A DNA stretch of 64,000 bases from Catajapyx aquilonaris (Eukaryota), in assembly GCA_000934665.2 (NCBI GenBank), contig JYFJ02001287.1, forward strand, positions 1 through 64,000, read 5' to 3'. Shown here piece by piece: positions 4,662 through 63,799 of the stretch (its first letter is position 1; each line of letters begins with the position of its first letter). A model generated the notes under the pieces. It saw only the letters and a list, made by a program, of their open reading frames with translations, ran no database searches and was not told the DNA's origin. A program made the position numbers and the translations under genes.

Positions 4662-4715
<54 letters not shown>
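4662..4715. repeat. (TAC)n microsatellite, ~18 units
   Basis: Pure tandem TAC run just upstream of the DPY19 start codon. Confidence 0.97.
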
Positions 4716-4749
4716 CCTCGAGTGCCCATCTATAATATTAAAATGCTTG

Positions 4750-41400: not shown

Positions 41401-44189
41401 ACCGTCAGATTCTATACCTATAGATGAAGAACGCTGTAATTAGTGGATGGCACTTAGATGGGACGTTGTTAATAACAATGTATGTATAAATTTCGCAGCT
41501 TTTAATTTCTTTAAAAAGTCAGGAACTTATCAGCCCCCCCTTCGTACTAGCTGTGCTGCCTATAGAAACTCAGGCATGATAGCGACAAATACTATGTCGG
41601 AAAAGATGTGATACTGCTAGGTAAGACTCAATAGTTACGTCAAAAGCAGGACATAGCTTGTGCAATGCTTGTACAGTATGTAAGGCGTAATAACATACTT
41701 AAACTCGAGATTTAACTCGACCGGTGATGCGGAGGATTTCCGAAAAGTGCGTTGAAATTAAGTGGTATATAATATTATAAGTAAACCCGCTCTTTAACAC
41801 TGATTAATAGCAAGAATTCGTTAACCTCTCTACTGTATTTTTCCAGATATAATCTAACCTCTTTTCCATGATCTTTAGATACCAAATATTGCTAACATTT
41901 AATATTGATTCTCAACAATTATTCGTACAGACATCCAACATTGGTTTTAGCTGCTACTTCTCTATTATACCTTACCATTTCATAGTGCTGTCTTTTCTCA
42001 CATCATGGTAATTTAACATGTCGCCGTCCCATTGCAATCCCCCACATCAGGATTAGACAAATTAACCTAAACATCGTCGAAGGGGTGAAAATATTGAACT
42101 CGCTATTTGTAAGTAACAGTTCCCGGAGAGTCTTTCATTAACAATATTGTGGGAGTTACAAGTGAGAAAAACAAACACTTCATGCATATAATCATTGGGT
42201 TTCTCTTTAAAAGTGTAACACGCTGTACATAAGCTAATGCTGCTTTACCAGAGAAGTGTGAATGATCGTGGATATCATCAATAAATACATTACTAGGCCT
42301 TTTTTCTGGGCCAATCGCTGGCTGAACTGGCAGTAACCTTAGAGTGAATGTGCCAAAGTTTTATACGTTGTTGATGTAGGTTTGATTATTTGATATTAGT
42401 ATGAGGTATGTGTAAGCCCTTTCATATGGACGCGTATGTTTAATTAGCCTCATTACGTTTTGTCATCAGATCTCAACCGGACAGGCACACCCAGAATAGA
42501 TATGCATATCTAAACATTCTTTGTGTATAGACCTGCGTTTTAAAATCATGTGCTGGTAAACATACCTCAGATTATTCCAACTCAAGTGAATGTTATTCTG
42601 GGTTGCTGGAAACAAATGCTGGGTAAACCTAGATTACTTAGTTAACCCGTGCAGTGATTACAATAGAGGAGTGATTAAGAGTACAGCAAAATATTTGCTG
42701 GCAAAGTATTAAGTCCTTGAAATGATTCTGAATAAGAGTAGGAGTCATTTACTTATAGGTCTACATGATTTGACTGACCCAACATCGCCTCCAGTTCCGC
42801 ACTTTTGTCATTGTTGGAGGACTTAGAATCACAATTTGCTCATGAATGTCGACACATGAAGCAAGTGCGGAAATTATTATCATAAGAGATTTCTTTCAAA
42901 TCATCGCATAAATGCACTGCAGTGTAATTTTACACTGCCATACCACAATTTAGTTAGTTAATGCCCCGATATGATCATGCGCTCTGTGGGCATGACACAA
43001 GAAAAGCAAAAAAGAATGCAATGTCCATGTTGCAATTATTATTAAGCCCTAATTTTAGGGAGTTTTGCAATCATGCTTCAGCTTTTCGATATTACTTTGA
43101 AGAGTCGTAACATCACAATCAAGTTACTCCGTAGGGTAACAAAACACTTCAAATGTAATTTATTTTTAAACATACTTGACAATATTTACTCTACTTTTTC
43201 GACATTGTATCGGTACTGTTTGTGACGACATTCATTGATATGGGCGTATTCTGCCTAATTCGATTTTAGTGCTAAGAGTGACATAAGTGGGACTTTTTCA
43301 GCTAGTGTGCTGACTTACCAAATTATAGAGTTACTAATGTGCGGGTACGTGAATAATGACTGATACTATACCATGGGTGTCAAAATTGTGGTCAAGTGAA
43401 AAGTTATCCCACCTGCAATTTAATCCGATCGTAACGCAAGAAAGCATGAACAATTACGTCATCATCCCTTGTGTGTAACAAGAGCACGGATATATACTTT
43501 TATTAGAATCTCAGGTGAGTAGAAAATTTATTTTTTATTAATCTTTCGTACAAATTCATGACGTTAAGTCGTCAAATATCGTCAAACACTCTGAAACGTA
43601 TATATACTCACCATATGGAGTTTCTTTTTATATGCTGCGGTACACAAATGTCACCGTGTCCAGCGACGCCGTGATTTTCAAGTAATATTTGTCGAAGTAT
43701 CTGTATTAATAATATTGAGATGATCTCATCATTTAGACCATACTGGTCTTGTAAATATTTAAAATATGAAAACGAAAGATATTTCTTGAGTCTGCTGTAC
43801 CTGTAAGGCTGTGTCTGTTACCGGATGTGTACATTTTTTGGTCTTGAGTATGTACGTGTGTATGTCAGTTTATTGTACTGTACGCGTACGTGGTGCTACT
43901 GCCCACACTTATATCCTGCCAAATAAATACTACCTGGCCTGTAGTGGGACGTAATTGATGCGCATATTTTGACTTCCCTGTATGATACTTTTTACGACTA
44001 TTGTTGCAACACAGAAAGTAAGTTATAGATTGTCGACCTTAATTGTGATTCACACAGTTGATCACGTATCATGGCAACGTAAGACACTGCAATTTTCATA
44101 TACAATGATTTACGAAGGAAGCCTACATCCTCAATTTCATAATATTTTACTAGACTTTGAACAGAATATAGGACCCTAACTCTGTGACG

Positions 44190-46675
44190 ATGAGGCGTCG
44201 CATATCTCCGGAACCTGAGGAAACAGTGGAAGACTTATTTCCGAATGAATCTCCGCCATCCGCAAAATCTGAAGAGAAATTTGATGAGAGCTACCTGCTC
44301 GCTGATCAGGTGCGAAAGTCGAAGAGGATCAACCTAAATGTTGAGAGACGGTTCAAGATACAAGAGAGCAAAGTTTTAAGCCGACAGGCTCAGGAGACGT
44401 GTTTCTCCAGCATCGTCGAAGCAGATGATTATTGGCTCAACCGCTACATGAAGAAAGAACTCTTAGGATTTGTTCTTGAGAACATATATTTCAGGTTACT
44501 TGAGATTTAAAATTTAAACTTTTAGTTCAACAATAGGAGATTTCACAGGCCTATATACGATGCTTCCTTCCAGAATCACCATATTATTTCTCATAGTGGT
44601 CAATGCAGTTTTAATCGCAATTAGCACAATGGACGACCTTATGGACGTCCACGGAAACTTAATTGACATTTTGGATTGCATGATTCTGTCAGTCTTTATT
44701 CTGGAAGCTGCCTTGAGGATGTACTATCATCTAGGTCTTTACTTCTACGTAAGCAGTTGGATAAAATAGCATTACATTATATGTATAACGCTTTTACATT
44801 TTTAATTTCCCTCAGAGTGGATGGAATGTATTGGATTTAATCATAGTGATTGTGACCATAGCGTACTATGAAAATCCATACCTGAGGAGCGCCCGTGCAC
44901 TTCGCTTGTTACGAGTCGTACGAGCACTTAGTGGTATCCGAACTGTCAGGTTCGTATCTGCTGGATTCCTATGTAATCCTATAATGGACTTCGCCGATGA
45001 CATATCAGGTTGACCCTTAAGCTGATCCAAACAGCAGTGGCTTTCAAACTGCCATTTTGGGTGGATTATTATCCGTGATTACATGGCATGCAATTAGGAT
45101 GTTTAAAAAAAAATTAATGTTATACTCTCCCAGAGGCCTGTCCATAACTTTGAAATTTTTTTCTATATTTTGTAAGCAGATTTTTGGCATATTTAAACAA
45201 ATTCACACTCACTCTAGCCACATTTTGAATTTCAGGGCACTGAGAGGCTTGTCAGTTGTACTAGCTACAATGATGAGTTCTTTGATAGACATGGCGAATA
45301 TTGTCATGCTGCAGACGGTCGTTATGCTGGTTTTGGGAGTCGTGGGTGTGACCCTGTTTGGAGAACTCATGCCCAGTAATTTTAGCAACATAGTGGACGC
45401 CTGTTACACTCTTTTTATCTGCTTCACTCAAGATGGATGGGCGGACATTAAAGAGGAATTTGATGTCAGAATAATATTTACTCTTGCGTAATGATACGGA
45501 TTAATATTGCAATTATTTTCGCATAGGCACTGGACTACTTCACAGCAGGATCGCTTTACCTCGTCTGCGCAGTAAGTATCACAGGCTTCATCTTTTCCAA
45601 CTTGGTCGTGGCATGCGTGGTCACCAACCTGGAAAGCGCGACTGCTGATATGAAAGCTGAAGATATGGAAGTTGATAATTTGCAAGAAGCAGTGAAAGAA
45701 TCGCAGGTGTGAAAACCGTGTTATCTGGTTCTCGTGGCTTTTCAATGCCCATATTATGACAAGCGACTTCAGATTTCAAACCGGATTGTTTCAGATGCAT
45801 CGTCATGCCATGTGGACTGTAGGTCGAGAAGTAACGGAAAAAACTCCAGAAGTGCCTGTGATTCTCACTAAAAATATGCTGCTCCACTCCCGAAATCTGA
45901 TGAAAAATCAAGGACCATTTGAAAGGCCTTCACTCAACTATGTCAATGCGGAGCGTCTGTCTAAGTTTTTCACAAGCAAGTGTTTTTTTCATTTTCATGG
46001 CCCTGCACTACCGGATATGAAATCATCTCAACTGTACAGAGTACAATTATGCAATTTTTTAAAATATCCAATAACTATTTACATTCGCATTTGCAGTTCT
46101 TGTCGCGCTGGAAGAAAACAGAATGGAGTATGAAGTCATTCGAAAAGATTTAGACCGCGTTGTGCTGGTGCTGCAAGACATCTGCAGCGTGACCAAATAC
46201 ATGGGCAATGATGAGGAGGAAAAGAAAATGAATACCCGGGCAGAAAGGTTGTTCAGTAATCAGCTTGACCTAATCAGGGAAAGTATCGTCAACAGGAAGA
46301 TGACAGGAGACATAGTAACCAACATGGAAGCACTAAACGAAGTATGTTGTCTTATATACGAAGGGTTCTTTGAGGGGCTGTAGTGGATGAGATTTTAAAA
46401 GTAAATTTTGACGTTGTAACCGCTTCCGTATCTCAAATAACGTCCATATTGAATTCCAGCTTAAAACCATTCGTCGAAACACGTTAATACAGGATAATGA
46501 ACGGCATAACCCAGAAGCAGCCAAGCTGTTGAAAAGAATCAAAGGATTAATCCAAGGCATCGGTAACCGACCTGCAGCCCCTAGACGACAGAGCAGACGA
46601 CAATCGCATATCATACTTCCTGAACATGGTACTCAGCCCCAGCATGGAAGTGTTTTCTATCGCCGATTGTCTTAA
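44190..46675 (+). CDS. CATSPER4: Cation channel sperm-associated protein 4-like (CatSper pore-forming subunit)
   Basis: Exons 44190-44494, 44574-44748, 44816-44949, 45236-45464, 45527-45706, 45795-45975 (GC donor), 46097-46341 and 46460-46675 (TAA). Single 6-TM repeat with S3 SGWNVLDLIIV, S4 RSARALRLLRVVRAL, pore FICFTQDGW (the T-x-D-x-W CatSper filter; TQDGW is the CatSper4 form), S6 FSNLVVACVVTNLE and a C-terminal coiled coil LEENRMEYEVIRKDL. Confidence 0.85.
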
Positions 46676-47611
46676 TAGGTCATTTGCATACGGACATGTT
46701 CATCGGAACATTTTGCATGATGTATATTCGACAAAAAATAAAACGTATACATCATCAGTTAAGAAAAATATTTTTGGTATTGGTTCTGTTGATTGTTGCA
46801 GCTATTCGTGCAGTATGAAGTGTTCAGGATCCACAAACTAATTTTACTGTAACAGTCGAGTTATTGCATTTTTGCTTATCATGAAATAAGTGCCTTATAG
46901 TATTTCCAGTAAAATCCATATCCGCTTACTAATAAGACTTACAAAGTCACAGCACACTCCTCGGAAGCCTACAGCCATGCCTACATATCTTTAATATTGC
47001 AATGCATACTCTTATGCAGTATGTTCTTCTTATGTAACGAGTGTGTGGCGCAGTTGAAGCGTAATAAGGGTGGTACAGTTGGCATTGCCTCACTTTTATA
47101 TTCATACAGTCACAGTTATTGATGATGCGAGTGTAGCTATTAACACTTGCGCATGTTACATCAATGTTCGCAGAAGAGGCCCACATTTTCCTTTTCCACA
47201 GCATAACAGGGCGTTTACGTTTCATGTGAAATGCATGCAGTCTATTGATAAAATTCTGCTTTCATTGCGGTGTTTGCTTCTGTATTGTCCAATAAGCGTA
47301 GCAGCCAGAAGTTACAGTCATGTAGATGTAATTTGCATATCGACCAGTTATTGGTATGATCATTGAGAAAACCTTATAAAAGCGGATACCAGCGGGTTAT
47401 TACGTCTGCTGCTGTCATCAGCGGGAAGTGCTGCCAATAATTCAGGTAAGGATAGCAGACCATTTAATCTGAATTAGCCTCTTGGAATAATCATCATTGT
47501 CGTCCCAAGAGTCCCACAATAGGAACACATTTCCTTAAGTTTCACACGTACTGTAATTACTGATTTACATTTTTATTATAGTTATAGGGGTGAAAAAACA
47601 ATACGACAAAA

Positions 47612-48450
47612 ATGAAGACACTAATGATGATTGTATGCCTGGCGATGAGTATTGAAGGGTCGGTTGGCTTATGTCGCAGCGGAGGTAGGTAACTCGACAA
47701 AATCGAACTGCTATGAAAATGATACGAATTTATTGGCCTAATGTTGTTTCCAGAGGAGCTTGAGTGTGGCCTATGCATGCCAGGAGAATATGACACTTTC
47801 TTGGATGATGGATATTGTCACCATTGCAAATGTTGCCTGTTCTTCTCCTGCTGTTATGTTATTGAGTGTGGTAAGTTAAATGCTCACATGTCTATCTACA
47901 TAATGACATAAAATTTTGCGCATGAAATTCAAATTGGAGAACTTCTCATTACCCAGTTATAGTGCATGTTTATGATTAGGGTGTTCTCTTGCTCTTCTTG
48001 CTGTCAACAGACACGGATGCTCAAGGAAGAAGGATTTTAAATGGAAACCACGCCAACCATAGACCAGGGGCGAGCCACAACAGGAGGGGTGGAAGGCCAG
48101 GGAGTGGCGGTACAAGCCATGGAAGCAACCCAGGAAGTGGCACAGGCAGCCATGGGAGCAGTGGCACAGGCCATGGGAATCACGGAGGTGCAAGCCGCGG
48201 AGGGAATTCTGCTGGTACTGGAGGCCACGGTAGGAGCCAGCACGGGACAGGAGCCAGGACAGGAGGAGGGAGCCATGGGAGTGGAGGTCATAGGTCAGGG
48301 AGCCACAATTCTGGGAGCCATGGAGGGCACGGGAGCGGAGGGCACGGCGGCAACAACGACGGTTCTGATGGTGGCCATGACCCAAGTGCGACGGAAGGAA
48401 CTGGCGGTGCAGGAGTTGCCAACAATGGGGCTGACAACGGGGGCACATAG
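47612..48450 (+). CDS. Cluster gene A: secreted protein, 10-Cys domain plus Gly/His/Ser-rich tail
   Basis: TATAAAA 47375; non-coding exon donor 47445; coding exons 47612-47684, 47754-47870, 48011-48450. Protein: MKTLMMIVCLAMSIEGSVG|LCRSGEELECGLCMPGEYDTFLDDGYCHHCKCCLFFSCCYVIECDTDAQGRR, then GSHG/GHG repeats. AATAAA at 48544. Confidence 0.85.
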
Positions 48451-49267
48451 TGGAGTCGCCGTTGGGTAAACGGAAAAAATTGTATTCAACTTCGAATGGC
48501 CAGAGAAAACCTTCCTTCATATATGCAAAACCAGAAAAATGTAAATAAATGCAACTCGTCAAAAGGTGTATTCATTAAATGTAGATCTCGTTTATCCTGC
48601 CCTAAACCGAAAAATATTTTGTACCGACGAAATGTTTATTAAATAATCAACAGCATCATTATAATAAATGTCATATTACTGTGTATGAATAAGCACTGTT
48701 TATGCAAAGCAGATGTTCCGTAACCTACACGTTACATAACATGTTTTCAAGTGAAGTCTGCTGGCCATGCCGTCTTCCTGCAAACACTTATAATAATTAT
48801 GCTTCTTATAACTATAATTATTACAACTGCAAGTATTTCTTGAGTAACAGATCCAACTGTTGCGTATGGTGTATATGAGTAGATCATAAATATTTGCAAT
48901 GTTCACAATGGAATGTTTACACGACCTTCATGCAAAATGCGCGTGGCAGACTCTCTTCCTTTATTGTCATATTTCCTTCCTATAATTCATTTGGTAATTA
49001 GGGCGATATGAAGGTTGAGGTCATTTGCATGAAAACCAGCGGGAATAACTTGTAGGTCCAAGCACAACATATAAAATGCCATGTAATGAGAGTAATTTCG
49101 AGGATAGACCACTGCAGATGTCTGCAGGGAAGGATTGACAAATCAGGTAACGGTACCCTTTTTCAGACAATCACTGTCGACTTTAGCGCTTTTAAAAGTA
49201 ATTGATGTTAAGTATAAATGGTGTTACTAATTAGTTATAATCTTAGTTAATTTCCACACAAGCAATT

Positions 49268-50749
49268 ATGTGGAAGACGATGAAGCCCCTCCTAGCACTT
49301 CTTTGCTTGTCAGTCACATTCAAAACGGCAGCAAGCCTCTGCCGAAGTGGAGGCAAGTGCCATTTTAAAACTAACCTTAAGTTAATGTGCACTTACTGAA
49401 CGGGTCTGCTTCGTTACAGAGGAGTTCGTCCATGGGCTATGCCAACCAGGAGAATACGACACCTTCCTTGACGATGGCATATGCCACCACTGTACATGCT
49501 GCCTGTTATTCTCATGCTGCTACCCATTTGATTGCGGTAAGTCCAAGAGGTCAAATATACAGCTAGGGGCATCAATGTTTATGAAACTGTTGCAAACATG
49601 CTGACGTTAGACAAATTAATTAAGTGCAATTAAAGGCGTTGTTTTCCCGTTTGTGTACCCATTTTACTAATTCGCAACAGTCGAAAGTGAGCTGGAATGG
49701 CACTTTACAGTTCAGATTCGTCGTCAAAAGCAGTTGCCGCAATTGCAGCCAAATACATCTCCGCTTTAATAATTGCAGGTGGCGACGATAATGACTATAT
49801 TGATGAACAGGAGGCTAAGAATGGGGTGCAGCGTGGTGGTGCTGGTGGAGGGGCAAATGGAGGCAGCGCCAGTCACAACCACGGTGGTGCGAGGGGTGGA
49901 AGCCATCAGCAGCAAGGGGATAAGTCTAGTAGCAACAATGTCGGAGGGGGCCACAACAATAAGGGTGGCACCGTCGGGGGGGTTTCTGGTTCCGAAAGCA
50001 GCAGCAAGGGTGGGAGCCACGGAGGTTCTGCAGGTGGTGGAAGTGGGCACAAAGCTGGAGGAGGCCGAAAAGGAGGAAGCCACGGGGGTGCTGTCCGCTA
50101 TGGCGGTGGTGGCAATGGAAGAGGAGGAGGAAGAGGAGGCCGTGGTGGTCACGGGAGAGGAAAGAAGCACGGTGTTGGCAGGAAGGGAAGTGGTGGAGGA
50201 AGAGGAGGAGGAAGCAACAACGGGGGCGGCGGTGGTGGTGGTAGTGCCAATGGCGGAGGTGTGGGTGGGGGCAATGGCAATGGTTCTGGTGGGGAAAGTA
50301 GTGATGGCGTGGGAGAAGTGGGCGGTTTGGGATCTGGGTCTTTTGGAGCTGATGTTGCTAACGCTCTTGGAGCTCTGAGCGATTTATTTGGCAAATTTCT
50401 TGGAGGAGGAGGTCTAGGTGGTTCAGGCGGTGGTCTAGGTGGAGGAGGTCTAGGTGGAGGTCTAGGTGGAGGAGGTTTAGGTGGTGGTCTAGGTGGTCTT
50501 GGTGGAGGAGGTTTAGGTGGTGGTTTAGGTGGTCTAGGTGGAGGAGGTTCAGGTGGTGGTCTAGGTGGAGGAGGTTTAGGTGGAGGCCTAGGTGGAGGAG
50601 GTCTAGGTGGAGGAAATCTAGCTGGAGGAAGTGTTGGTGGGGGAGGTTTAGATGGAGGTAATAGTGTAAATGACACCTCTGGAGGTCTCGGTGTGGGAGA
50701 TGGTGGAGGATCTCTAGTCAACGAGGGTGGTGCAGGGGTCAGTGGATAA
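49268..50749 (+). CDS. Cluster gene B: secreted protein, 9-Cys domain (paralogue of A) plus long Gly-rich GGLGG tail
   Basis: TATAAAA 49070; exon-1 donor 49146; coding exons 49268 (or 49280)-49352 (GC donor), 49420-49536, optional 49681-49686, and 49779-50749. Protein: MKPLLALLCLSVTFKTAAS|LCRSGEEFVHGLCQPGEYDTFLDDGICHHCTCCLLFSCCYPFDC, then ~320 aa Gly-rich. AATAAA at 51026. Confidence 0.85.
50402..50615 (+). repeat. Coding minisatellite encoding (GGLGG/GGGGL)n
   Basis: Tandem ggtctaggtgga(gga) and ggtttaggtggt units inside the gene B tail exon. Confidence 0.9.
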
Positions 50750-52086
50750 CTTTCCAAGGGCCATGTAACACGGTGTCAGTAGTGCTCTTGCATTTAGATT
50801 TGTCTGTACCAATGTTTACTGTTCCAATTTTGTGTCAATGAGTGAGAATCAAATGATATTTTCATAGTAGAAAGGCCGACAGTTATACTTTCAGTGTTCG
50901 TAAAGCAATGGAGCTTAGGTGAGACGGAGATCTTCGTTCATTTCACTGTAAGCAATAATATTGTCTCATACTCTATACTGCATAGCAAGTGCACGATGCA
51001 ACATTGCCATTCATACACCTGCTGAAATAAAGACAAATTTGAATACCATGTTTATTTGCTTGTCGGTGCTTTTCTTAGCTTATACGCATGTATATACGTA
51101 AGAATGTGTTTCTGGTTGTTACCTTTGCTTGAACAAGTAGAAACAAAATACAGTATAACTGGTAACTCTTTCCATATATATGAACTCATAAAAACTATAA
51201 TTATGTCTGTCATATAAAAAGGAAGTGCGCACGAGTACGCTGTAATAGTTTTTCATAACTTCACGGTATAGTTTCAGTTATGCATAATTATCACCTTATT
51301 ATTTTGGTAACCTTCCCTTTCGAGATAATCCCGTTACAAGTGAACTTGTGTAACCAAATATCCACATCAGCCACACCTCTGATAAGTTTTACTACCCATA
51401 TTTTCAAAAATAAAGTTCTAGCAGTGTATAATTATGTGTATATAATTATTATTATGCATTTACTTTTATTTAAAACAGAGGTTTAAACTAGCCTTGGCCT
51501 GCTTCGTAATCCGAACAAATGCAATATTTATGTTAAAATTTACAACAGCACCTGCTGTTAGGTACTTTATGTGTGCCAGCCATCATATGGTAGCCGTAAA
51601 TAGGACTTTCATTCATTTAAATTTACATTAACGCAACGGACAACGGTCATTTGACAGTAGTGTAACAGCTGTGCACATGTGCTAACTGATAACACAGGGT
51701 ACACGACTGTTCTATTTGCTTTTGTGAGCGCATCCCCAACAGGCCTAAATGAGGAAAACACACCGTACAGTACCGGTATATATACATGCAATATAGAAAT
51801 AGTAGCAAATCGAGGCTATACATGCAGTACCTGTACTACACTACAATAGGCATGTATACATGGTGGATTGGTGGTGTAGTACATTTATAAGATAGTAGAG
51901 ACCCTAATTATTGTGCAGTTGCGAAGAAGTAGATGAGCATCCTGGTGCTGTCAGAGCATCCAGAAATGTACCGTATACGTATTTTCCACCAATGCTGTAA
52001 ATAATGCCGTACCTTTTGTGTGATGAAATTGTTTATTCACCTAATACATTACATGATAATGCATTGTTCTACATTAAACTTTGCGA

Positions 52087-52648
52087 CTAAAAACACCGAA
52101 TTCTACAAGTGTACCTGCCCAAACCAAAGGAAAATAAAGTAGGGCCATCACCATTGTAATCGTCATCGTTGTAATCATTAGCGTTGTTGGGCGAATCGTT
52201 GCCTGACGCTGCTGTTGTCCCATCATTGCTGCCAGCCGTAGTTGTTGAGTTGTCGGAGTTGGTACCTTCAGTAAAAATGCCCAGAGTTACTAAGTTGTTA
52301 AACACATCTATTTTCATTTTATGCACTCATAATGTTCTCACTTTCAGCAGTCGTGGAAGAAGGTAACTTGTCGCATTTGACGTAAGCTCCCATGCATCTG
52401 CAGTCGTAGCAATCTGAAGTGCCTGGCTTGCAGCACTGTCGAGTTGCTTCGGGGCATGTCATAACTGAATACGTTCCTGGAAACAATGGTTTATCAATGT
52501 TCAGTACAATGATGTAAATTCATATCATCACCACCACCATAATTATGAAGAACTTACTTCCGTTGCAAGGGTCTTGAAAGACTCCATCAGCCACCAGGAC
52601 CAAAGCACAAGTCAACAGTACAAGACAGAGAGTATTTATTCCGGCCAT
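52087..52648 (-). CDS. Cluster gene C: secreted protein, 8-Cys domain plus Ser/Thr/Asn/Asp-rich tail
   Basis: Exon-1 donor at 52794; coding exons 52648-52558, 52476-52342, 52265-52087. Protein: MAGINTLCLVLLTCALVLVADG|VFQDPCNGRTYSVMTCPEATRQCCKPGTSDCYDCRCMGAYVKCDKLPSSTTAESTNSDNSTTT...DDDYNGDGPTLFSFGLGRYTCRIRCF. Minus-strand AATAAA at 52032-52037. Confidence 0.82.
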
Positions 52649-54899
52649 GTCTTAGAAGTATCTGCAATAGGCTGTAGCAACAACGAATTGGCCGACTAAA
52701 GTTCAGATTGTATCAAATATTACAGCTTTTTTCTGTCTTCATTGATACAACTGGTCCTTAGCCAATGAAAGAAAACTCGAGAAGAATGTGTACCTGCAGT
52801 GGTACTGAAAAATTGATTGTGGTTTATTTTTGTTGCTTTCTGTGTATTATTGTGAAAATCAGGAGTATATAATAATCATTTCATTGATGTGGATTAAGTT
52901 CGGATCTGCTTACAATTTTGTGCTCAGTGAGGCGAAATCAATTTTTGTCTGCAAAAGATTCTGGTAACTACACAGCGCGTTTTAAAACCTATTTCGTACA
53001 TAGCACTTTCCCATCAGAATGAACAGTTTCATGCAGGCCTGACTTTTAAAAGGCGATGCATGAAAAAATATTTAAGTTTACACTTCACTGGGTTCAGGAT
53101 AATGGATATTAAAAACTATGATGCAATTATTGAAATAATTATTGAAATAAATTGATATTGATATCCAATGCAATTAAATCTGCCTTTACCCCCATTTCTA
53201 ACTATTGTAACTAAGTAAGTGTTGAGAGTACCCTTACGCTGATGCCTTGCAGAGTCCCGATTCGTGGGATAAAACTGATCTAATATCACTTTTGATTCGC
53301 TTCTTATACAAGATATCCAAGGAACTCTGATAATAATGAATTCGCATTTGTATTCGTCTGATGTAGACGTTTCATATCATATTCCACTTATGGCAATAAA
53401 AAGGCTCCCAATATGACATTGATACATCAAAACAGAGTGATAGGCTAGGTCACAACACGTCTTAAGATAACCTTTACTTCACCTACTTTTTCATAAACAA
53501 GCTTTGTAGTGGTGGAATGATGACGCAAACTTCCGGAATAGGACATACAGTGCATTATGTGGTTCTGCGTATAACTGTTTCAATATTACTATTCGTCCTT
53601 CTTGGGATACAGCTCCTGCAGATGTTTGTCGTGACCCACATTTTATTCTCAGAAATGACGGTGGCGTAAACACGTTATGAAACACATTAACTATGCAGGA
53701 GAATTTTAATGAAATTCTGCTGAATTTGTAACCAAACGACAGATGGTAACTTCCCAACATTCAAACACATTTTGAGCCGAAGTACTGACCATGAAAAATG
53801 ATACCCCTAATAAAATTCCTCATAATTATTGCTGGTTGTTCATTATTACTGCGTTAATCAAAAACCCAACAAGTCGAGTTTGGTGATGTCATTTCTAATT
53901 CTCCGCCTATCCTTCTATATATGGTGTCATTGTCTATACAAAGTGGACTGCTGTTATCGTGACAACAAAGAAATTCATTGGCGACGGAAGATGGTTGAGA
54001 ATACTAATAATCAACTTATTACGAACGCGAAAGTAATTCATGTACACCACGCATTTCAAATATATTGTAAGCAAAATGTTCGCATTTCCATAATAAAATA
54101 CCAGGCGATTCTATTTACCAGTGGCCACCACGACAGATGAATGTACTACGTGTGTTAAAATTTCATCATCCACACTTTCAGATAAGGAATTGAAAAACAT
54201 TTTTCTTTGAAATGCATATCAGGCCATCAGTAGCACATTTAAAAAACACATTCATTCCATGCAAATCTTTCATGTTTTTTCCTATCATTTACCCTCAAAA
54301 GAACTTTTCAATGAATTTTTAAGTTACTAGGAAGTCTGGTGTGCGTATTACACAATATAAAAATACGCACTTCACCATCAATATAAAAGTGAAGCGAGTT
54401 TATGGTCAGTTTACTGTTCGCAGAGCAAGAGAAGGTGAAGTGTCACTAATATCATCCACTGAAGCTCACATCAGGTACGTTCAGGTCAGTCACATCATTT
54501 GTCGCAGGTAGCATTATACACTTTCGTTTTTAAACAATTTGAAAAATTGCAATTTCAAGTTCGTTCGCATTTAATTTTCCTTTGGAATTCCGCATGTGAT
54601 AGTTTTGTTATTGCTATTCCTATTTTGTAATTTTCTACGGTAACTATTTTGTGATTTGTTTTTACGCAACAATCACTCAGAGAATTCCTCACAAAATGTA
54701 GGCTACCCTACTCCACAATATTTTAAAATTATTGTCTATGTAGATCCTTTCCATTAATCGAACCATTGTCAAATAGTCAGCGCAGTTGAAGATTAGTGGT
54801 TCTATATCTATACAGCAAAGAGCGTCCTCCTCACGCCTGATTCATGTCGAATAAATTTAATGTAGGGCATAAAAAATATTACAGACTCATTCCCCCAGA

Positions 54900-55463
54900 A
54901 TGAAGATCCTTCACTTGATCATGTTTGCTGCATTTGCTGTTGCCGTCGCAAGCGGCTTCTTCACTAACTGTGGTCCAGGACGTGAGTAAAAGAATATTTG
55001 TTTAGTCCACCTGTCGCGTGTTATTTTTAAATGCATAATTATGCATATAATGTACCTTCTTACATCATTGCAGAGAGCACGATGATGATCAGCTGCCCCA
55101 ATGCCAGCGGTGTTGGCACTTGGTCCCGTGTGGCTCCGCCGAATGATTGCCGCCAGTGTACTTGCCGTCGTGGGTGGTTTATTCAGTACTCTTGCTGCAC
55201 ACAGATGTCATGCCCAGGTATCACAATCATGTCACTTATAAAATAATATAATACTGAATTCCCTCTACTGAACGTAACCTAAGTGTAGCCAATGTTAAGA
55301 AAAGTTTTGTTGGAGAAAAAATATCCAACTTGTTTTGACAAACAGGAAGTTATATTCAAAATTGTTTGCTCGGACTTCATATGACATATCACGTGTGTTT
55401 TTTGTTTGTCTAGCTCCTGCAGCACCTACCACTACCACAGTGGCATCAGCACCCTCAGCATAA
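54900..55463 (+). CDS. Cluster gene D: small secreted 8-Cys peptide with short Thr/Ala tail
   Basis: TATAAAA 54382; exon-1 donor 54474; coding exons 54900-54981, 55074-55217, 55414-55463. Protein: MKILHLIMFAAFAVAVASG|FFTNCGPGQSTMMISCPNASGVGTWSRVAPPNDCRQCTCRRGWFIQYSCCTQMSCPAPAAPTTTTVASAPSA. Confidence 0.87.
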
Positions 55464-56404
55464 TTCCGTCTGGCATAGTGAAACACCCTGCCAGCTCCTG
55501 GGATGGTGATGAAGAAGTCGGTGGAGGGTTATAATACAATCTGAGTAATTGAAATTGATATGTCTGGAAACAGATTAGTTCATTGTCTTTTTTAAAAAAT
55601 TGAGCTTTCTTGACGAGCACTGCAACATTTTTGGTCCTAGTTTTGTGCTTTATCGATTCTGGTGTATGTAGCAGGAGCATACCTGATCAGTTGCAGGTAT
55701 ACTGTACAGGTAGACACATCTCGTTCACTACTACTTTTCTACATGTAGAATTGTAGATATAATAAATTTGATGCATGATCGCATATTGGCATACTTATTT
55801 TGGTTCTAAGAGAAACACCTATACTTGTTCCTTGAATGAAATGCTTGAATTTCTATCAACTTCAGTTGATTGACACTGTGACTTATGAGTTAATTTATTC
55901 AACTAATAATTTATTGCAAAATGTAATTATACAGTTAATAAAGTTTGATGCCCTGCAGTGGATGTACTGTATACCCATTCATTTTGCGGCTGTAGCAGTC
56001 TCCTGCAAACGCTAGCACGCGATTTTCTGTGAACCTTATACGTTATACTGTATAGGGAATAACATCCTGGTTAGTCCGTTTTGCTTCCGAGAGATAGTTT
56101 AGCAGTTGTTTCATAACCAGCAGAATATTCCATGCAGTTCAAATGGACTGATGATTGTGATGGACACATCCATGGGTCAAAATTTCCTTAATCCCTGCGT
56201 TCCATAGCAACACTTGTGCCATCCATAAAATAATGATATCCAGTTTGGATAGATCAAGGAATATATGCTATACACTTCATTCATTATTAGACTGTGGGAA
56301 GTATTGACCATCTTGTATTGCACAGAGCATGATTGTTGTCTCTGTGCATTTCAGGCCGAACCTTTTGCCAGTGTTTTGGTGTTCACGTGATTTGAGCAGT
56401 GGCA

Positions 56405-56463
56405 AAATCTTGTACACTCTTTTAATTAACCATGGTTACTAATTAAAAGTGCGTACAAGATTT
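56405..56463. repeat. ~59-bp near-perfect inverted repeat (hairpin) between genes D and E
   Basis: AAATCTTGTACACTCTTTTAATTA pairs with TAATTAAAAGTGCGTACAAGATTT (2 mismatches in 24 bp) around a short loop. Confidence 0.8.
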
Positions 56464-57596
56464 CAACTTCAACTTACGGGGTGTATCTTAGGGCTGGTTG
56501 TTTGAACACGAGTTAAGAACAACTAAGAAGTTTGCTCTTGTTTACATGAACACAACATGAGCTCGGACGGGTTTTATGACTTCCAGGATATTCTATAGAC
56601 CTTGTGTTTTATTCCCTAAAATAACGAGAAGCCGGCAGCATCCCATCTCTAAAAGCAACGTACTTGTATATGCAGTTATAAATTTTATCACATTTTCTCT
56701 ATTAATTTACAGTATAGGTTGTACAGTAGTCACACACGATGCGTATTTTGCATCTTACAAGGATCACCTTGCATAAAAATATTATTTCAAATGTATAAGC
56801 GCAGGCAAACGCATGTCACTCTGTAATATTATAACTAGCAGCAGGTATTGATGCAAAATAAAGTGTTCAATGATTTCTATATACGGCACTAATAATTCTG
56901 CTCTGGGAATGTTTGTTCCCGTGGCCTCAGGTTTTAAATAAAATAGGCCTGGTCACATCTGGTGAAGCAGAAGTAGGGCAAGGTCCATCCTGGATACTAA
57001 GAACTTTAACTCATTTGAATTTAAAAGGTGTGTCATTCACACTCAAGGTTAAAACTGCTGTTTATTAATAGTTTACTTACAAATATGCATTCCCATTTTC
57101 CTATTAGCAGGGTCATTCGCATTTAATGATCATCTGGAAATTCGCATAAGATAATTTATAGGTCACCGACATGGTATATAACATGTGAAATTTCGATCAT
57201 TTCCCAGCTCCTCTATCTTCTCTGCACGATATTGCCTCCCTGATTTCTCAACTAAGGTAAGTAAGTTATAGTGTAGCAAGTGTGGATTAGTTTTTGATTA
57301 TCCTATTGTATAGTTGTAATACCCACAATTTCTGATTATTCAGCTAATTCCTCACAGAATGCAACATGGTTAATTTTGAAATGATCGTGTGAATTGATAT
57401 ACTGTATTATACTGTATATATCGAGTCATTGTCAAATATTATAGTCACCTCTGTAGTTGAAAATTAGGGGTTCTATTTATGGCAAAGAATCTTCTCACAC
57501 CTGCTTCATAACGAATAAAATAATGTAATAGTAAAGAAGTGTGCATATTACAGACTCAACTTTCCAGTCCTACTGCCTTCATCAATAACATTCAGT

Positions 57597-58142
57597 ATGA
57601 AGACGCTGCACTTGGTCATGTTTGCTGCATTTGCTGTTGCCGTCGTAAGCGGCTTCTGTGGCTCAGGACGTGAGTAACAGAATATTACCAACTGCCAAAT
57701 GTCATTTTCAATGCGCATACTCTTAATAATAATTACACCGTTGCAGAGAGCAAGTTCATTATTAGCTGTCCCTCCTCTGCCGTTGCTGGCCGTTGGAACC
57801 GTGTGGTCCTGCCGGATGATTGCCGCCAGTGTGTTTGCCAGAATTCCTTTTTTTTCCTCTCCTACTCTTGCTGCACAAGAGTGGCATGTCCAGGTACCAC
57901 CTAATCATTTTACTTAATTGATTACCTATACAGTACATAGCATAAGTGTAGCCACTATACTTTACGCCAAGAAAAGTTTTGTTGATCAGAAATATTATAC
58001 GTACCTATACTTGTCTTGTCAAACAGTAGGCTACTGAATATGAAATGGTTTGTTCTGACTTCATATTCCGTGTGTTTTGATTTGTCTAGCTGCAGCAGTT
58101 ACCACTACTGGAACCACGCAGCCATCAACATCAGCCATGTAA
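57597..58142 (+). CDS. Cluster gene E: small secreted 8-Cys peptide, recent paralogue of D
   Basis: TATATAA 57175; exon-1 donor 57256; coding exons 57597-57669, 57747-57893, 58090-58142. Protein: MKTLHLVMFAAFAVAVVSG|FCGSGQSKFISCPSSAVAGRWNRVVLPDDCRQCVCQNSFFFLSYSCCTRVACPAAAVTTTGTTQPSTSAM. Confidence 0.87.
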
Positions 58143-59758
58143 TTTCGGCTTACGTGATGAAGCACCCTGTCAGCTCCTCGGATGGCGATGAAGAATTCGG
58201 CGGAGGCTTAAAATACAATATTATTATTGAAATTGATAAGTCTGGAAGCAGATGTGAGTCAATTGTTGTGGTTTTTATGAGCTCGATCTTGAAAAGCACT
58301 GCAACATATTTGGTCCTAGTTGTGTGCTTAGTCAATAATTTTGGTGTAGGGGCCTACGTAACGAGAGTGTGTCTAATCAGATGCAGGTACAAGTAGACGC
58401 ATCTCCTGCAATGCTATTTACTCATTTGCAGATTATTTTGATGCACATAGATGTAAGTAGATTTGACATATTTTATTCATGATCACATAATATAATATTG
58501 CATAATTATAGATGAGCACATTTATTTCGGTTTGAAGAGAAATGCCCATCATTACTTGCCCCTTAAATGAAAGGCTTGAATTTATGCCAACTTCTGTTAC
58601 ATTACACTGTGACCTATCTCTGTAAGGGTTAATGATCCTACTGATAAAGTTACAGCAAAACACTGTAATTGCAGCCAATAAAGTTTTATACCCTTCAAGC
58701 AGTGGATATACTAATTCATCTGACCAAAAAGGCTTGTTTTACTGTGTACAGCTGTCTCCTACGAGCTCTAAATCAACCATCACCGTATTCGGCGGACACC
58801 TTTGTACCCGTACATAGATTTCCTCCAGGCTATTTACTTCATCTTACATGAACGCTACACCTAATGATAATCCTGGCCAAGGCAAATGATGAAAGTTCGT
58901 TTTGGATCGGACGAAGTGAGCCAATCAACACTGCTTGGGCATAAAATAAATACCAAATAAACGCCCGCATTTACAAAATATATAATCCAGCGGTTTTGGC
59001 GGTTTGCTCAATATTACCAAAAATGTATAAAATGTTATGTAACCATCATTTCTGAGTTGCTCAAGTCAGCTGAATAGAGATTGACGTGTACGCCTGCTAC
59101 AAATATCGACAACTATTCCTTTGCATCAACAAGTTTGTGTGTTGCGCAGCAAATATTTTGCAGCTCTGACCAATGCTGATCGTGTTGTTGCTTTTTACGA
59201 TACAATGAAGCGATGGGCAGCTCTGCGCACTGCTCAACCACAACTTCAAATTCTTTTTAGACAGGTGCAAATTTTTGTCGGATGCTCATTCATACGAATT
59301 GGAATATGCCTATCAATTTATTCACGCTTTGACATGTTGGTGAAAATACGTTTTCTGATCTGAATTTTTTACTGAGAGGAAGTTCGTATAAAAGCCACTG
59401 GTAAAGTATAGTGGGCCACATTCAGATTTTTCTGCCTAAAAGTACTAGCATCTTTCTTACCTGAGGCATCCTCCCTAGAGAAGGTAAGGTTTGGCCTTTA
59501 ATCCTGCTTTCTATAGACTATAACACTTTTTGCAAAAATTGTTATACGGAATTTCGAGTCTGAAGCTCCTTTTAAACTGATGTCCAATTGAGCTTCTGAA
59601 GTTCACCAGTGGAATATAAAAATAAATAAATGTACACAAACTATTAGGGTCTCATATTTATGTCAGTTGATAACGGCTCTGCATTCTAGTTACAGTGAAT
59701 CACACAGAAAATCCTCATTTTTCTGGTCACTATTATAATAAATTCTCTTACAGCCAGC

Positions 59759-60212
59759 ATGAAGAGCGCCATCATTTTGATTTGCATGGCCGTGTCCATA
59801 AATTTGGCTCACTCCTGGTTCTTTCCGTCGTGCCCTACAGGTAAATTATGAAATGCAGTGAATATTCTCAGAATGTGCTTGTTTGCCTCGAATAACTTGG
59901 ACCAATGTTACTAACATTATCAGATCGTAGTAATATGATGATGGTGGCATACCCAAACAACAAAGAGTGGAAGAGAATCGTCGCTAACGACTGTCGGGAT
60001 TGCATGGGTAAGGGAAGCTATTCTTGCTGCAAGAGAATGGATTGCCCAGCGCCAGCCCCTGCCGATAAATGTAAGTACACACCTATAATATGTCTCCATC
60101 AGGGCCAGTCATATCGACAAACTTGTGCAACTGCGTTGTCCTACATGATGTATTGCCTGCCCTGAAGGGTTACGGATACCACCCACAAGTTTCCAACCAT
60201 ATCCTTGCAGAA
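59759..60212 (+). CDS. Cluster gene F: small secreted 6-Cys peptide, essentially tail-less
   Basis: TATAAAA 59387; exon-1 donor 59483; coding exons 59759-59840 and 59924-60070, then probably acceptor 60211, which gives a split T|AA stop. Protein: MKSAIILICMAVSINLAHS|WFFPSCPTDRSNMMMVAYPNNKEWKRIVANDCRDCMGKGSYSCCKRMDCPAPAPADK. The last exon is uncertain. Confidence 0.8.
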
Positions 60213-62399
60213 TAATCGCCATCTATACTGGTAGGCTATCCAGGATTACCTGCATGGTAATGTAAGTAGGAATCCCAGAACAGGAAATGACTCTGTGTAC
60301 AACAATTGGCATTTAAAAAACTGTGTGTGGTTGTCACTATAACTTTTTTGTTGTACTGGATGTTGATAGAGAGACGCATTAGTAATTTTTAGCAATATTA
60401 GGCACTCCTCATTTGCACGTTTTTGTTAAGTACATATTGATGGTCAGTTGCATGAACACAAACTGTTGGATTATGCATAGGTAGCCCCTGCTTTACGACA
60501 GTTCATTTTACATTTCACATTATTAACAACCTTTTCAAAATGACCTAAGATATAACAAGTTTTGATAAAAATTTGCAAAAAAAATTAAAATACGGTGAGA
60601 AAAGTATTCGAAATAGTAACACACCTACGTCATAACCCCTTTGAGTCCAAACATGCAATAGAGGCTTTCGTTTTTAGTGGCCCATTGTGTCAAGATGTAC
60701 AGTACACAGATACACAGTAATGTATTACTGGTCTTGGCAGTCCCCAAAGCACTGTAACAACTGTTGTTGCAATACACTTCTTGTACTACAATATTTCACA
60801 GAGAAGGGAAATGGGTCCTCAGAACATGATAACCCTTAATCTAGAACCTCTCGTTAAATATGTGCATTAAATGTTTTGAATACTCAGTGTAAAAAATAGA
60901 TCAACATTACTATGGAGGTAAAATTTTGGAACCTATTCCAATCAATTACATTATAATTTTGTCTTGTTTTACGACGTTTCACTTTACAACCTTGTTATTC
61001 TCATACCTAAGCATGTTATAAAACTGAGGCTACCTGCATTGTGAATACATAATCGAATATTTTTCATTTTATTTCATGCAACAGACCATGAATGTTTATC
61101 TGCTAATATTCTGATTTATATCAAGAGCTAGCTCATGTTTATATACATACAAATCAAGAAAGATATAATATTTCCATTTTTAGCTACAGCAAGTTCAAGT
61201 TCAACTCCATCAACTAAGAAAAGTCCTGACAAGAACTAACTGTAGGAGAACACTGACTGTGAGAGCCAGCAATATATTAATCCAGTGACATTCATTCACC
61301 AGAAAGTTACAAGCAATAGCAATGGTACTTTTAAGCATAAGACCTTCATGAATCATATGATTTAAAATACTTCTCTGTAGCAGGCCTGCACAAACTAAAT
61401 AAAACACTATTACACATTCTCTCATTGATGCTGTGTTATTTAGCATTGTGTTACTGCAAAGAGTCAGATCAGCTCAAACCCTTCTGACATTTAAACCATT
61501 CGTCAAGTAAGAACCAGCTGCATCAACACAATGCAGGGATGTTCTGAAAGAACCGTGGTTTTATCAAAACTGGGCTTGGTGAAACTGGCCCTTAGGGACA
61601 TTATTCTGGCGATGTGCTGGTATTCACATTCCGCACCTTAGATTTTCTCCTTCATATGAGTTAATTCAGCAGGTCTCTTACTTCTGATTCTTGCCTGTCT
61701 CACTTCACAAGCTAGCTCTACTCTATGTAATAGGTAAAATGCATTTTATTCAGCCACTAACGACCAATTCCCCTCCTGTCTCTCCACGAACATGGGCTGG
61801 CAATAGTTAGGCTGAGTTTTGTGATCCCATTCATAAGTTGTCGTGCTCTGTTATTCACTATTTTGAACATTATAACCAACAATACACCATAGAAACAGAT
61901 ATTCATCCAGTTCTCATCATGGCTTGCCATACAATATTATTTTGTGGCACTCAGAACACATGAATAATTTGGCTCAACTGACTATTCAGTGTCATATATC
62001 CAACCTGATCTGAACAGACTTGTAGTGACTTTTCTGTAAGGAAGCCAGATTAGAGCACAAAAACCTGTGCTGCTGGCATTCATTACTGCAGAACCAGGTT
62101 ATGACAGCCACACGGATGGCTAGGGATTGCTGGAGGGATGTCACATGGGCGAAAAAATGAGTGAAGGTCTAGGAAGGTACTAAAAGATAATAATATTCCT
62201 ATCGCCTGCCTGAAACTTGCAGGAAATGAAGGTGCTTCAATCATGTGCACATGCTAAAGATTATTATTGGTGCTGGCCATTGCCAATTCATGCCGCCCAC
62301 ACCGCCTAAGTCCTGATCCTCCTGAAAGCTGCAGAAAAGATACATTAGTTGTGGTTCTAAAGTTGTTTTATTTTGCCAGAGGTGATGTGTAGGAGAGAA

Positions 62400-63799
62400 T
62401 TAGATCTGTAGCAGAAGAGCCACACCAGCCAGGACCCATTTGGACGGGCTGTCCTTGCTTTTCAGGTTGAAGGTCCACACATAAGTAGGTCCTCGACTGC
62501 GTGTCTTGTACACTGGGCATTCATACATGTTTCGGGCATCCATCTTGTCCTGGGTGATGGCCTAGAGGGTCAGAATTGGTTAGTTTATCAGTTAAGATGT
62601 GCATGTAACATGTGAGGATTAGTCCTCTTGAATGTTGCATACAAAAATCGTACCCTGAGATAAATGACAGGCATAACTGGGTACAGCTCTTTCAATTTGG
62701 AATCATTTATAGCGCCAGTCTGTGTATCCCATCGAGCGCCCTCCATAAACATGCCAGTGATGTTGGCTCCCTCCCTCGGAGGGCTCCTGCGTAAAGGACA
62801 TAATACGTGTAAGGTGCACATCCTAGCTTTAGCATACTCCATACTCACGAGAAATCCTCCCTAACTTTCTTGGTTACGTCACATTGGAGGCACATCTTGT
62901 CCAGGGGGAGCTCCTGCCTGCGAGCAGTGCTCTGCATGATTGCAGTGAGGAAGGACTGTGGGTTAAAAAACCCTGCCAGCCACACGCAGGCTGGTAGCTG
63001 TGTGCATTTAAAAAAATCATGGTGTAGTACTCTATCAGCTCATCCCATGCTGTGTGACTATCTTACCACAAAGTCTGAAGACCAAGTTTCCAGTTCACGA
63101 ACACGGAGGAGGAGGTCAGCATACCATGGTGTCAGTCCCATCATTGATGGATATGCCCTCTTTGTCCATCCTGGAGGGACCTCATCCATGAACAGGCAGT
63201 TGGACAGGTCTTCCATGTCAGATGTGATTGTCAGTTCACCCTGTGCAAGTTAACAGTTTGTTAGTACATCTTGACAACAGTGACCAACAGTGATTCTGAG
63301 CACCTTCAAGCCAAGATCAAGCTCCTTCAGAGAGCGCCTCATTTCCTTGGTTAGGAAGCTCATCCGCTCGCACTCCTGGAATGCTACGATAACGTAAGGG
63401 GTCCTTTCTTCCACCTTAGACATAATTTCAGCCATGTTAAATTCATCAGGGAGGCGCTCCATAATGTCATCCAAAACTTGCTTCACCTGAGGACAGAATC
63501 AGTCATAACATCAGAAGACTCAAGTGTTAGTGAGTCATTGCAAAATCACTGCATACTTTTTCCTCTTTGGTAACAGTTGTTCCAGCTCCAGCACCTGAAT
63601 CCCGAGGTTGCAACTCCAAGACAGTTTTGAAAAGATTGTCAGAAGTGGTGGTAAGAAATCCTATCTCAGCATTTGGATGCAGGCCATACAAGTAAGGAGA
63701 TTCAGCTGGGATGTTTTCATCAATGTACACGTGATAGCCATGATAGTCCGTACTTGTGGGATTGGAAAATCCAGGAGCCAAGAGGACTTCGCCCTCCAA
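62400..63799 (-). CDS. Axonemal dynein heavy chain, outer-arm beta type (DNAH9/11/17-like), C-terminal exons; the gene continues beyond the right edge
   Basis: Exons 63799-63557, 63486-63304, 63240-63067, 62997-62849, 62786-62654, 62561-62400 (TAA). Motifs [71 protein letters not shown] and [33 protein letters not shown]. Confidence 0.95.

Follow-up and report, generated by a model that had tools for sequence, protein, structure and literature searches.

What kind of genes lie between 47.3 and 60.3 kb of the window, the 64-kb stretch of Catajapyx aquilonaris DNA analysed here (contig JYFJ02001287.1, positions 1 to 64,000)? A first-pass annotation had picked out in this region six hidden genes for secreted cysteine-rich (Cys-rich) proteins, with one shared core and interchangeable low-complexity tails, and had attributed them to a single lineage-specific family diversifying by tandem duplication, with gland-secreted systems (venom, adhesive or silk, seminal or antimicrobial) as candidate roles. 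We rebuilt the gene models, A to F, from the raw sequence and obtained a cluster of six intact four-exon genes within 13 kb, with gene C inverted. Taken as a whole, the locus may best be explained as a lineage-restricted family of secreted proteins that carry a disulfide-rich head like that of beta-microseminoprotein (MSMB) and serve in defence or in a reproductive secretion, an explanation that we would place just short of an even chance.

The six models share one layout, in which a non-coding exon 1 is followed by a signal-peptide exon, a symmetric Cys exon and a tail exon. The signal exons (73, 85, 91, 82, 73 and 82 nt in A to F) all end in phase 1, with the first cysteine (Cys1) 2-3 codons before the exon end in every gene, and the Cys exons (117, 117, 135, 144, 147 and 147 nt) all run from phase 1 to phase 1. 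The proposed succession of a phase-1 signal exon ending 2-3 codons past Cys1, a Cys exon of 117-147 nt with phase 1 at both ends and a tail exon was recovered in 6/6 models. The second Cys is residue 8 of the Cys exon in five of the six genes; F has Tyr in its place. AG acceptors are found at 18/18 introns and GT donors at 17/18. The second intron of gene B has instead a consensus GC donor (AG/GCAAGT) that keeps the CRSG-E junction as in A, the alternative being a weak GT donor that is also in phase and lies 6 nt further upstream. Five genes are preceded by a TATAAAA or TATATAA box, so that the TATA box ascribed to all six stands for all but C, which has a weaker TATATAC-like site only. AATAAA follows the stop codon at 50-560 nt in five genes, and F has only ATTAAA, 370 nt downstream. 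On these features the six models look like real genes for secreted-type proteins.

Gene A (47375..48549, + strand) has TATAAAA at 47375, a non-coding exon 1 ending at 47445, an exon 2 starting at about 47582 and AATAAA at 48544; its coding sequence (CDS) of 209 aa comprises 47612-47684 (signal peptide and Cys1), 47754-47870 (Cys exon) and 48011-48450 (tail). Gene B (49070..51031, + strand) has TATAAAA at 49070, an exon 1 end at 49146 and AATAAA at 51026, with a CDS of 390 aa at 49268-49352, 49420-49536 and 49779-50749. Gene C is read from the - strand (52032..52877), with exon 1 ending at 52794, exon 2 starting at about 52661 and AATAAA at 52037; the exon model places its CDS at 52648-52558, 52476-52342 and 52265-52087. 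Gene D (54382..55942, + strand) has TATAAAA at 54382, TCAGT at 54406, an exon 1 end at 54474, an exon 2 start at 54885 and two poly(A) signals, AATAAA at 55761 and 55937; the CDS (54900-54981, 55074-55217, 55414-55463) encodes 91 aa. For gene E (57175..58682, + strand) the corresponding features are TATATAA at 57175, an exon 1 end at 57256, an exon 2 start at 57554, AATAAA at 58677 and a 90-aa CDS at 57597-57669, 57747-57893 and 58090-58142. Gene F (59387..60212, + strand), whose 3' end is undefined, has TATAAAA at 59387, an exon 1 end at 59483 and an exon 2 start at 59754. Its CDS of 76 aa (59759-59840, 59924-60070 and 60211-60212, the last completing the stop only) ends in a TAA codon split by the last intron (T/AA), so that the last exon adds 0 residues. 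Splicing of this intron is our preferred model over its retention, because the donor (AAT/GTAAGT) and the acceptor both look strong. If the intron (60071-60210) were retained, the frame would stay open for 31 more codons with four further Cys, giving F 10 Cys in all, the same number as full-length MSMB; a 31-codon open frame is ordinary by chance, and four Cys within it are above expectation.

The heads of these proteins, about 45-57 aa in length, contain 6-10 Cys (10 in A, an odd 9 in B, 8 in D and 6 in F). The full framework has eight, C-x10-C-x13/17-CxxCxC-x4/11-CC-x4-C, of which F lacks the second and the fifth. The SCC-x4-C core that had been credited to all six genes is present in A, B, D and E but not in C, where this end is absent and the CC is displaced elsewhere, and F is short of the two framework Cys just named. 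A hidden Markov model (HMM) of the six cores, run against all six-frame open reading frames (ORFs) of the window, recovered the six exons at E 1e-15 to 1e-20 and nothing else better than E 3e-4. The next item, a 24-codon open frame with a CxxCxC at 22877-22948 (+ strand; E 3e-4 against the head profile), has no signal exon or matching architecture and is probably a chance occurrence.

By overall sequence the heads form two clear groups, A/B and D/E/F. BLAST among the six sequences gave identities of 77% for A and B, 53% for D and E and 39% for D and F, with E values of 8e-11 for D against F and 1.5e-8 for E against F. What unites the two groups is not overall sequence but the Cys framework, the intron positions and the likeness of the F signal peptide to those of A and B. 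A Cys pattern taken from D and E only, with its two long loops relaxed, fits both A and B, and was matched by 6/200,000 shuffles of A and 0/200,000 of B. A, B, D and E share exactly the same C1-x10-C2 spacing and the same intron position, 3 codons plus 1 nt past Cys1. The core of F groups with D/E, although its signal peptide is similar to the A and B ones, the scores being equalled by 2/5000 and 0/5000 shuffles, respectively. We take these features to show that A, B, D, E and F are one tandemly duplicated family, as had been proposed. The membership of C appears weaker than that of the others, making it an outlier: it shares the architecture and fits the pattern of the N-terminal half only (C-x9-CP...DCxxCxC, relaxed post hoc once C had been seen; 25/200,000 shuffles fit). 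C had rightly been called the most divergent of the six.

The cluster holds two pairs with different histories. Gene E is a recent duplicate of D, with 66.7% identity over 1192 aligned nt, introns and 3' untranslated region (UTR) included. Identity between them is 90% in the signal exon, 74-75% in introns 2 and 3 and 74% in the 3' UTR, against 69% in the Cys exon and 62% in the tail exon, and 8/8 Cys are kept. The nonsynonymous distance (dN) of the mature region is 0.39 versus an intron distance of 0.31, and that of the signal peptide is 0.08; divergence of the mature part has outpaced that of the introns, with the signal peptide conserved. A conserved signal with a fast-changing, Cys-fixed mature part is typical of defence, toxin and reproductive or mating secretions and is not usual for bulk structural proteins. 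A and B, by comparison, can be aligned as DNA over the Cys exon only (74.6% over 130 nt), their introns not being alignable. Across the signal-plus-head region the proportion of synonymous differences (pS) is 0.82, that is, saturated, while the nonsynonymous proportion (pN) is 0.23, and the A/B head is therefore under strong purifying selection.

The tails had been described as completely different from one another, and this did not hold. The A tail (146 aa; Gly/Ser/His, with Gly at 35%, His at 11% and dibasic RR sites close to where the tail joins the head) is colinear with the first ~140 residues of the B tail, scoring 250 against 195 +/- 11 for shuffles, none of which (0/1000) reached the real score. 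The B tail, of 323 aa and 50% Gly, opens with a Gly/Ser/His part and continues with an RGG part, then a unique segment and lastly GGLGG repeats (14 overlapping copies of this motif). The D tail (16 aa of Ala/Thr/Pro) and the E tail (16 aa, Thr-rich) come from homologous exons with 62% nt identity. The C tail is acidic, made of Ser/Thr/Asn/Asp with two more Cys at its end, and F has almost no tail. 'Interchangeable' tails is therefore an overstatement: the last exon is indeed where members differ most, but there are three tail lineages (A/B, C and D/E) and a nearly tailless F, not six.

Charge also sets the groups apart. The A/B heads have an isoelectric point (pI) of 4.3-4.4 and a charge of -6, and their tails a pI of 11.4 and 9.3 and a charge of about +4, an acidic head joined to a basic tail as in a precursor. 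The C tail has pI 4.05 and charge -8; the D/E/F heads have pI 8.5-8.6 and a charge of about +3. From the spacing of Gly, no 3-residue periodicity was found in the tails, which rules out collagen-like tails and tails like the polyproline-II antifreeze proteins of springtails. Several local features of the tails were also recorded. Between the RGG-rich part and the GGLGG repeats of B, at 50340-50400 (residues ~255-275), lies a short non-repetitive Ala/Leu/Phe-rich segment, SFGADVANALGALSDLFGKFL; no other part of the B tail looks capable of folding into a helix. The GGLGG-coding DNA of B (50398-50659) is itself tandemly repeated, at an offset of 99 nt and with 77.5% identity between copies. In the C tail (52087-52265, - strand), Tyr residues flanked by Asp/Asn (DYNDDDYNGD) are possible sulfation sites, and N-x-S/T sequons are present too. 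The D head has one such sequon (NAS), and E and F have none.

What might such proteins do? The secretion, fold, disulfide pairing and function of A-F are all things that we infer from sequence. The head is split over two exons, Cys1 lying near the end of the signal exon and the rest on one symmetric phase-1 exon, and the tail has a last exon to itself. The family grew by tandem duplication, and its members differ mainly in that last exon. In the mechanism we envisage, the proteins are predicted to be exported into body fluid or a gland or epithelial secretion, where the head could act as a disulfide-locked, protease-resistant binding or pairing module and the tail would set charge and physical behaviour. 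The A/B tails would be long, basic and disordered, and D/E would bear a short Thr/Ala/Pro stub; stubs of this composition are usually O-glycosylated. The role is most likely host defence or a reproductive-tract secretion and not bulk structural material. We lean this way because of the conserved signal and fast mature part of D/E, the basic heads of D/E/F and the cationic Gly-rich tails of A/B.

Several observations count against such a role. The dN/dS of D/E is 0.64, not above 1, albeit from small numbers of sites. With the loosest pattern, no kappa-B-like site was found in the 500 nt preceding any of the six TATA boxes, where 1.75 would be expected, a result that lends no weight to classical inducible antimicrobial genes. 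The Cys count of B is odd (9), and a structural matrix would be just as compatible with the low-complexity Gly-rich and acidic tails.

The first alternative to be weighed, and one that we consider unlikely without thinking it negligible, is a structural or adhesive matrix (cuticle, eggshell, spermatophore, cement or a silk-like material). Here the head would be a cross-linker or docking unit and the tails the material, those of A/B being Gly-rich and elastic or amorphous, that of C acidic and mineral- or cation-binding and those of D/E glycosylated. The Gly and His content of the A tail, the Gly content and overlapping GGLGG motifs of the B tail and the strongly acidic tail of C all suit this picture, as does the ninth Cys of B, which would leave one free for an intermolecular bond. 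The lack of kappa-B-like promoter sites points the same way, and one head with chemically opposite tails would suit a multi-component material. Yet D, E and F are nearly tailless, so the head alone must have a job, and a mature part that changes faster than introns, as in D/E, is not what bulk structural proteins usually show. Pfam detected neither a chitin-binding nor a cuticle family in any part (six Cys exons and two tails), and the missing 3-residue Gly periodicity argues against collagen-like or polyproline-II antifreeze-like material. Secretion into a defensive or reproductive fluid remains the role that we prefer.

Sequence databases offered little help in placing the family. The external queries were single-exon translations of 38-48 residues without Cys1, which reduces sensitivity; that for the A exon (40 aa) included two residues read into the intron. 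Pfam hmmscan of the six Cys exons and two tails at E <= 10 gave no family past its cut-off, and the sub-threshold rows, DUF2477 (E 2.8) and an Apicomplexa microprotein (E 0.022), were judged to be noise. A word-index search of 5.8 billion clusters returned nothing for the D exon (against longer proteins) or the A exon, and one candidate at near lengths for the six-exon alignment, which did not score. An exhaustive profile search of 1.84 billion protein representatives, against which a 41-position profile needs a very high score, gave a single match at E <= 0.001. This 1834-aa repeat protein, probably bacterial by its make-up, is spurious: its three Cys fall within the final 20 residues, and no one stretch of it accounts for the match. 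The ESM Atlas yielded no usable match with D, or with F restricted to named clusters. To judge from these searches, the family is new as a sequence family, with no detectable relatives in very large databases. The novelty claimed at the outset stands to that extent, no relative having appeared in Pfam, the word index, the 1.84-billion scan or the Atlas; it is tempered by a head that shares its Cys order and gene layout with MSMB and the related USM (E 0.061 at best).

Other disulfide-rich frameworks were considered and set aside. Gene C matched LDL-receptor class A among PDB sequences, but the match (E 0.25) is non-significant, and C lacks the acidic calcium-binding residues that we take to be conserved in that motif. 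The inhibitor cystine knot has the framework C-C-CC-C-C within about 30-40 residues. A, B, D and E have CxxCxC before CC, the knot order occurs in C only and with two extra Cys, and no knottin family was among the Pfam or PDB matches of the heads. Against the remipede xibalbin venom peptides, as presented in the available part of PMC11288129, no common framework was seen.

The likeness to MSMB came from 177,635 PDB sequences of solved structures. The six-exon profile gave three matches, all to MSMB (E 0.061, 0.55 and 0.56), none of them significant; the D/E/F profile gave two, both to human MSMB (E 3.5); and F alone gave five, of which the top two were porcine MSMB (E 1.1 and 1.2). In the 38-residue alignment of F with MSMB, YPNNKEWK...DCRDC...SYSCC stands opposite HPLNSVWK...DCEEC...AISCC, a likeness that extends beyond Cys to P-x-N-x-x-W-K, DC-x-(D/E)-C and S-C-C. 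The Cys order of the MSMB N-domain, C...C...CxxCxC...CC, is found in A, B, D and E; F is two Cys short of it and C has its CC displaced. The ten-Cys, two-domain build of MSMB was not found, as the Cys count of the heads is 6-10 and nothing resembling a C-domain comes after them. The D/E/F-profile alignments cover C18 and C37-C50 of MSMB and not C2.

Much weighs against a true relationship. No MSMB match is statistically significant, even the best (E 0.061), and noise of similar strength arose for C, the LDL-receptor class A match at E 0.25. D alone, E alone and the A/B profile found no PDB match at E <= 10, and Pfam PSP94 (PF05825) was not reported at that threshold for any of the six Cys exons, queried without Cys1. 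Predicted structures did not help: the AlphaFold model of the D exon is weak (predicted local distance difference test, pLDDT, 64.7) and that of A/B unusable (pLDDT 49.3). The D model has four strands, and none of its 17 Foldseek rows reached E <= 0.001. A wide VIA comparison of this model gave 0 rows at Z >= 5, the best (Z 3.5) being an unrelated protein, and a second look gave 0/17 rows at Z >= 2. No MSMB chain appeared among the 17 Foldseek rows or the 30 VIA rows with Z >= 2. Loop lengths differ as well, with a C1-C2 spacing that we take to be x15 in human MSMB against x10 in the cluster, and the start codon, which in MSMB lies at the end of exon 1, is inside exon 2 in the cluster genes. 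We keep the lead despite its non-significance because the same small family came first for three queries among 177,635 sequences and because other features agree with it. We read the family as either a very divergent arthropod relative of MSMB, USM and MSMP or a convergent copy of them; that the relationship is true seems to us possible, though somewhat less probable than its opposite.

A lesser alternative is that the head is a reduced von Willebrand C (VWC) domain, possibly of the single-VWC (SVWC, Vago-like) type, in which case the proteins would be cytokine-like or pattern-recognition immune factors. VWC domains have a CxxCxC and a later CC motif, as the heads do, but their consensus has several middle Cys and ends in CC-x2-C, whereas the heads have no Cys between CxxCxC and CC and end in CC-x4-C. 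The top Foldseek row for the D model was a von Willebrand factor C4 domain, although at a non-significant E 3.7 and probability 0.12, and all 17 rows had Z <2 in the second VIA look. SVWC proteins are mainly arthropod and have eight Cys, according to the available part of PMC13115929. With no Pfam VWC or SVWC (PF00093, PF15430) at E <= 10 for the six exons, and no VWC chain among the PDB sequence matches in which MSMB chains were present, we regard a VWC origin as improbable.

Could the cluster be two or three unrelated small Cys-rich families (A/B, C and D/E/F) that merely lie side by side, alike only in Cys richness and in a common phase-1 signal-exon design? Phase-1 introns after signal peptides are common in general, and overall sequence gives this idea some footing, since cross-group BLAST in the six-sequence database reached only E 5e-4 to 0.14 and, in eight cross-group HMM tests, between 19 and 2831 of 5000 composition-preserving shuffles equalled the real score, a marginal result that tells against a single family. 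The divergent end of C, with its CC elsewhere, fits the idea too. Chance likeness does not readily account for the full D/E framework in A and B at 6 and 0 of 200,000 shuffles, for a C1-x10-C2 spacing and an intron site identical in A, B, D and E, for the A- and B-like signal peptide of F or, with the caveat that the pattern was chosen post hoc, for the fit of C to the N-terminal half, including CP and DCxxCxC. Separate origins are in our judgement very improbable, and one family remains the preferred reading.

That the models are decayed copies or chance open frames and not expressed genes, as the want of database matches and the intron-split stop and unclear AATAAA of F might suggest, is barely credible beside six intact reading frames over 18 introns in correct phase, the purifying selection on the A/B head (with only the Cys exon kept in the DNA), the 8/8 Cys that D and E have in common, and the presence in most genes of a TATA box and a poly(A) signal.

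The window as a whole is animal DNA and carries spliced genes of an ordinary kind. Open frames of a voltage-gated-type cation channel at 44172-46383 (+ strand; Ion_trans E 2.5e-10 for 45021-45491) end ~1 kb upstream of A, and C-terminal exons of a dynein heavy chain (62588-63799, - strand; Dynein_C E 9.8e-13) are found beyond the downstream end of the cluster, on the opposite strand. Further away are a Dpy19 exon at 3269-3688 (- strand; Pfam E 2.4e-33), a triplet microsatellite at ~4200-4980, one frame of which reads as a run of ~18 Val, and the sole N of the window, at 5803. Within the cluster, the octamer ATTTGCAT occurs at 47331 and 49023, 44 nt upstream of the TATA box of A and 47 nt upstream of that of B, and its reverse complement at 54259, 123 nt upstream of that of D. 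It may be a shared promoter element; there are nine occurrences in the window, in both orientations. Two palindromic stretches were noted, at 56405-56463 between genes D and E (62 aligned columns, 84%) and at 59519-59546 in the first intron of F (28 nt, 93%).

Tandem families of small secreted Cys-rich proteins are a known kind and often serve defence, venom, mating or material functions that evolve fast. The present cluster is an unusually clean case, with one head and chemically opposite tails within 13 kb, and it combines an old conserved pair (A/B) with a young fast-changing one (D/E). If the link to MSMB is true, a family whose function is debated in vertebrates extends to arthropods, and the cluster becomes a natural experiment on what the N-domain does alone. 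If it is false, the head would represent a disulfide-rich domain that is new, for which the pairing 1-7, 2-5, 4-6 and 3-8 is predicted. In either case, ab initio gene finders and ORF tracks would miss A-F, which matters for the annotation of poorly sampled arthropod lineages.

Comparison with known systems brings out several partial likenesses. Toxin, defensin and seminal multigene families share the general pattern seen in D/E, a conserved signal, a fast mature part and fixed Cys, and differ in that the D/E dN/dS is below 1. The A/B tails resemble Gly-rich antimicrobial peptides in being cationic and Gly-rich with GGGR and GGGL-type runs, a likeness of composition only; those peptides are short and, to our knowledge, without a Cys-rich head, and the A/B tails, at 146-323 aa behind a head of 9-10 Cys, do not fit that description as encoded. 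The arthropod and arachnid examples in the available part of PMC6784228, namely acanthoscurrins, ctenidins and serrulin, are cationic, Gly-rich and haemocyte-derived, with sizes of 3.5-10 kDa and C-terminal amidation. SVWC/Vago proteins, as described in the accessible parts of PMC13115929 and PMC11515477, are likewise secreted, with eight Cys in four disulfides, arthropod-centred and tandem-expanded; the cluster heads are shorter (~45-57 aa), lack the middle Cys and have the CC-x4-C end.

The closest parallels are with MSMB, USM and MSMP, themselves small secreted disulfide-rich proteins, of which MSMB binds CAP/CRISP proteins. The genes for MSMB, USM and MSMP, in the portion of Frankenberg et al. 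2011 (PMC3268785) available to us, have four exons, of which exon 1 is non-coding apart from the ATG and exons 2, 3 and 4 encode the signal, the N-domain and the C-domain, respectively; they form lineage-specific tandem arrays whose exons change faster than their introns. The cluster genes show the same arrangement of four exons, the first of them non-coding (the ATG being inside exon 2), the same tandem expansion and, in D/E, the same faster change of the mature part than of the introns. The family is attributed there to deuterostomes, molluscs and one rotifer, with no arthropod among the holders named, and no arthropod MSMB was found in the portions of the literature searched. Unlike MSMB, the cluster heads have no C-terminal domain, and some members carry long low-complexity tails, which the available parts of PMC3268785 and PMC9363672 do not mention for MSMB. 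The MSMB N-domain is a four-stranded Greek-key sheet (available part of PMC9363672), and the weak D-exon model (pLDDT 64.7) likewise has four strands. The Trp a few residues before (D/N)C and the Ser-Cys-Cys after it in MSMB alignments also recur in the cluster heads. F has lost exactly the second and fifth Cys, as expected of mutual partners, and a C18-C42 bond, which we take to exist in MSMB, would match this paired loss. A bolder possibility, which we hold to be somewhat unlikely, is that the cluster is the first arthropod branch of MSMB/USM, reduced to an N-domain head with the last exon replaced. One head would then bear many tails (Gly-rich cationic, acidic or mucin-like), the head as docking or pairing unit and the tails as working parts of a defence or reproductive secretion. 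The marsupial egg-coat protein USM offers a precedent for such a reduction: in the same portion of PMC3268785 it is described as having lost most of the C-domain and having eight Cys, with a new C-terminal Cys proposed to replace C73 as the partner of C37. D and E match it in having eight Cys, seven in the N-domain order and the eighth four residues past CC, and their CC-x4-C end would play the role of the new C-terminal Cys of USM.

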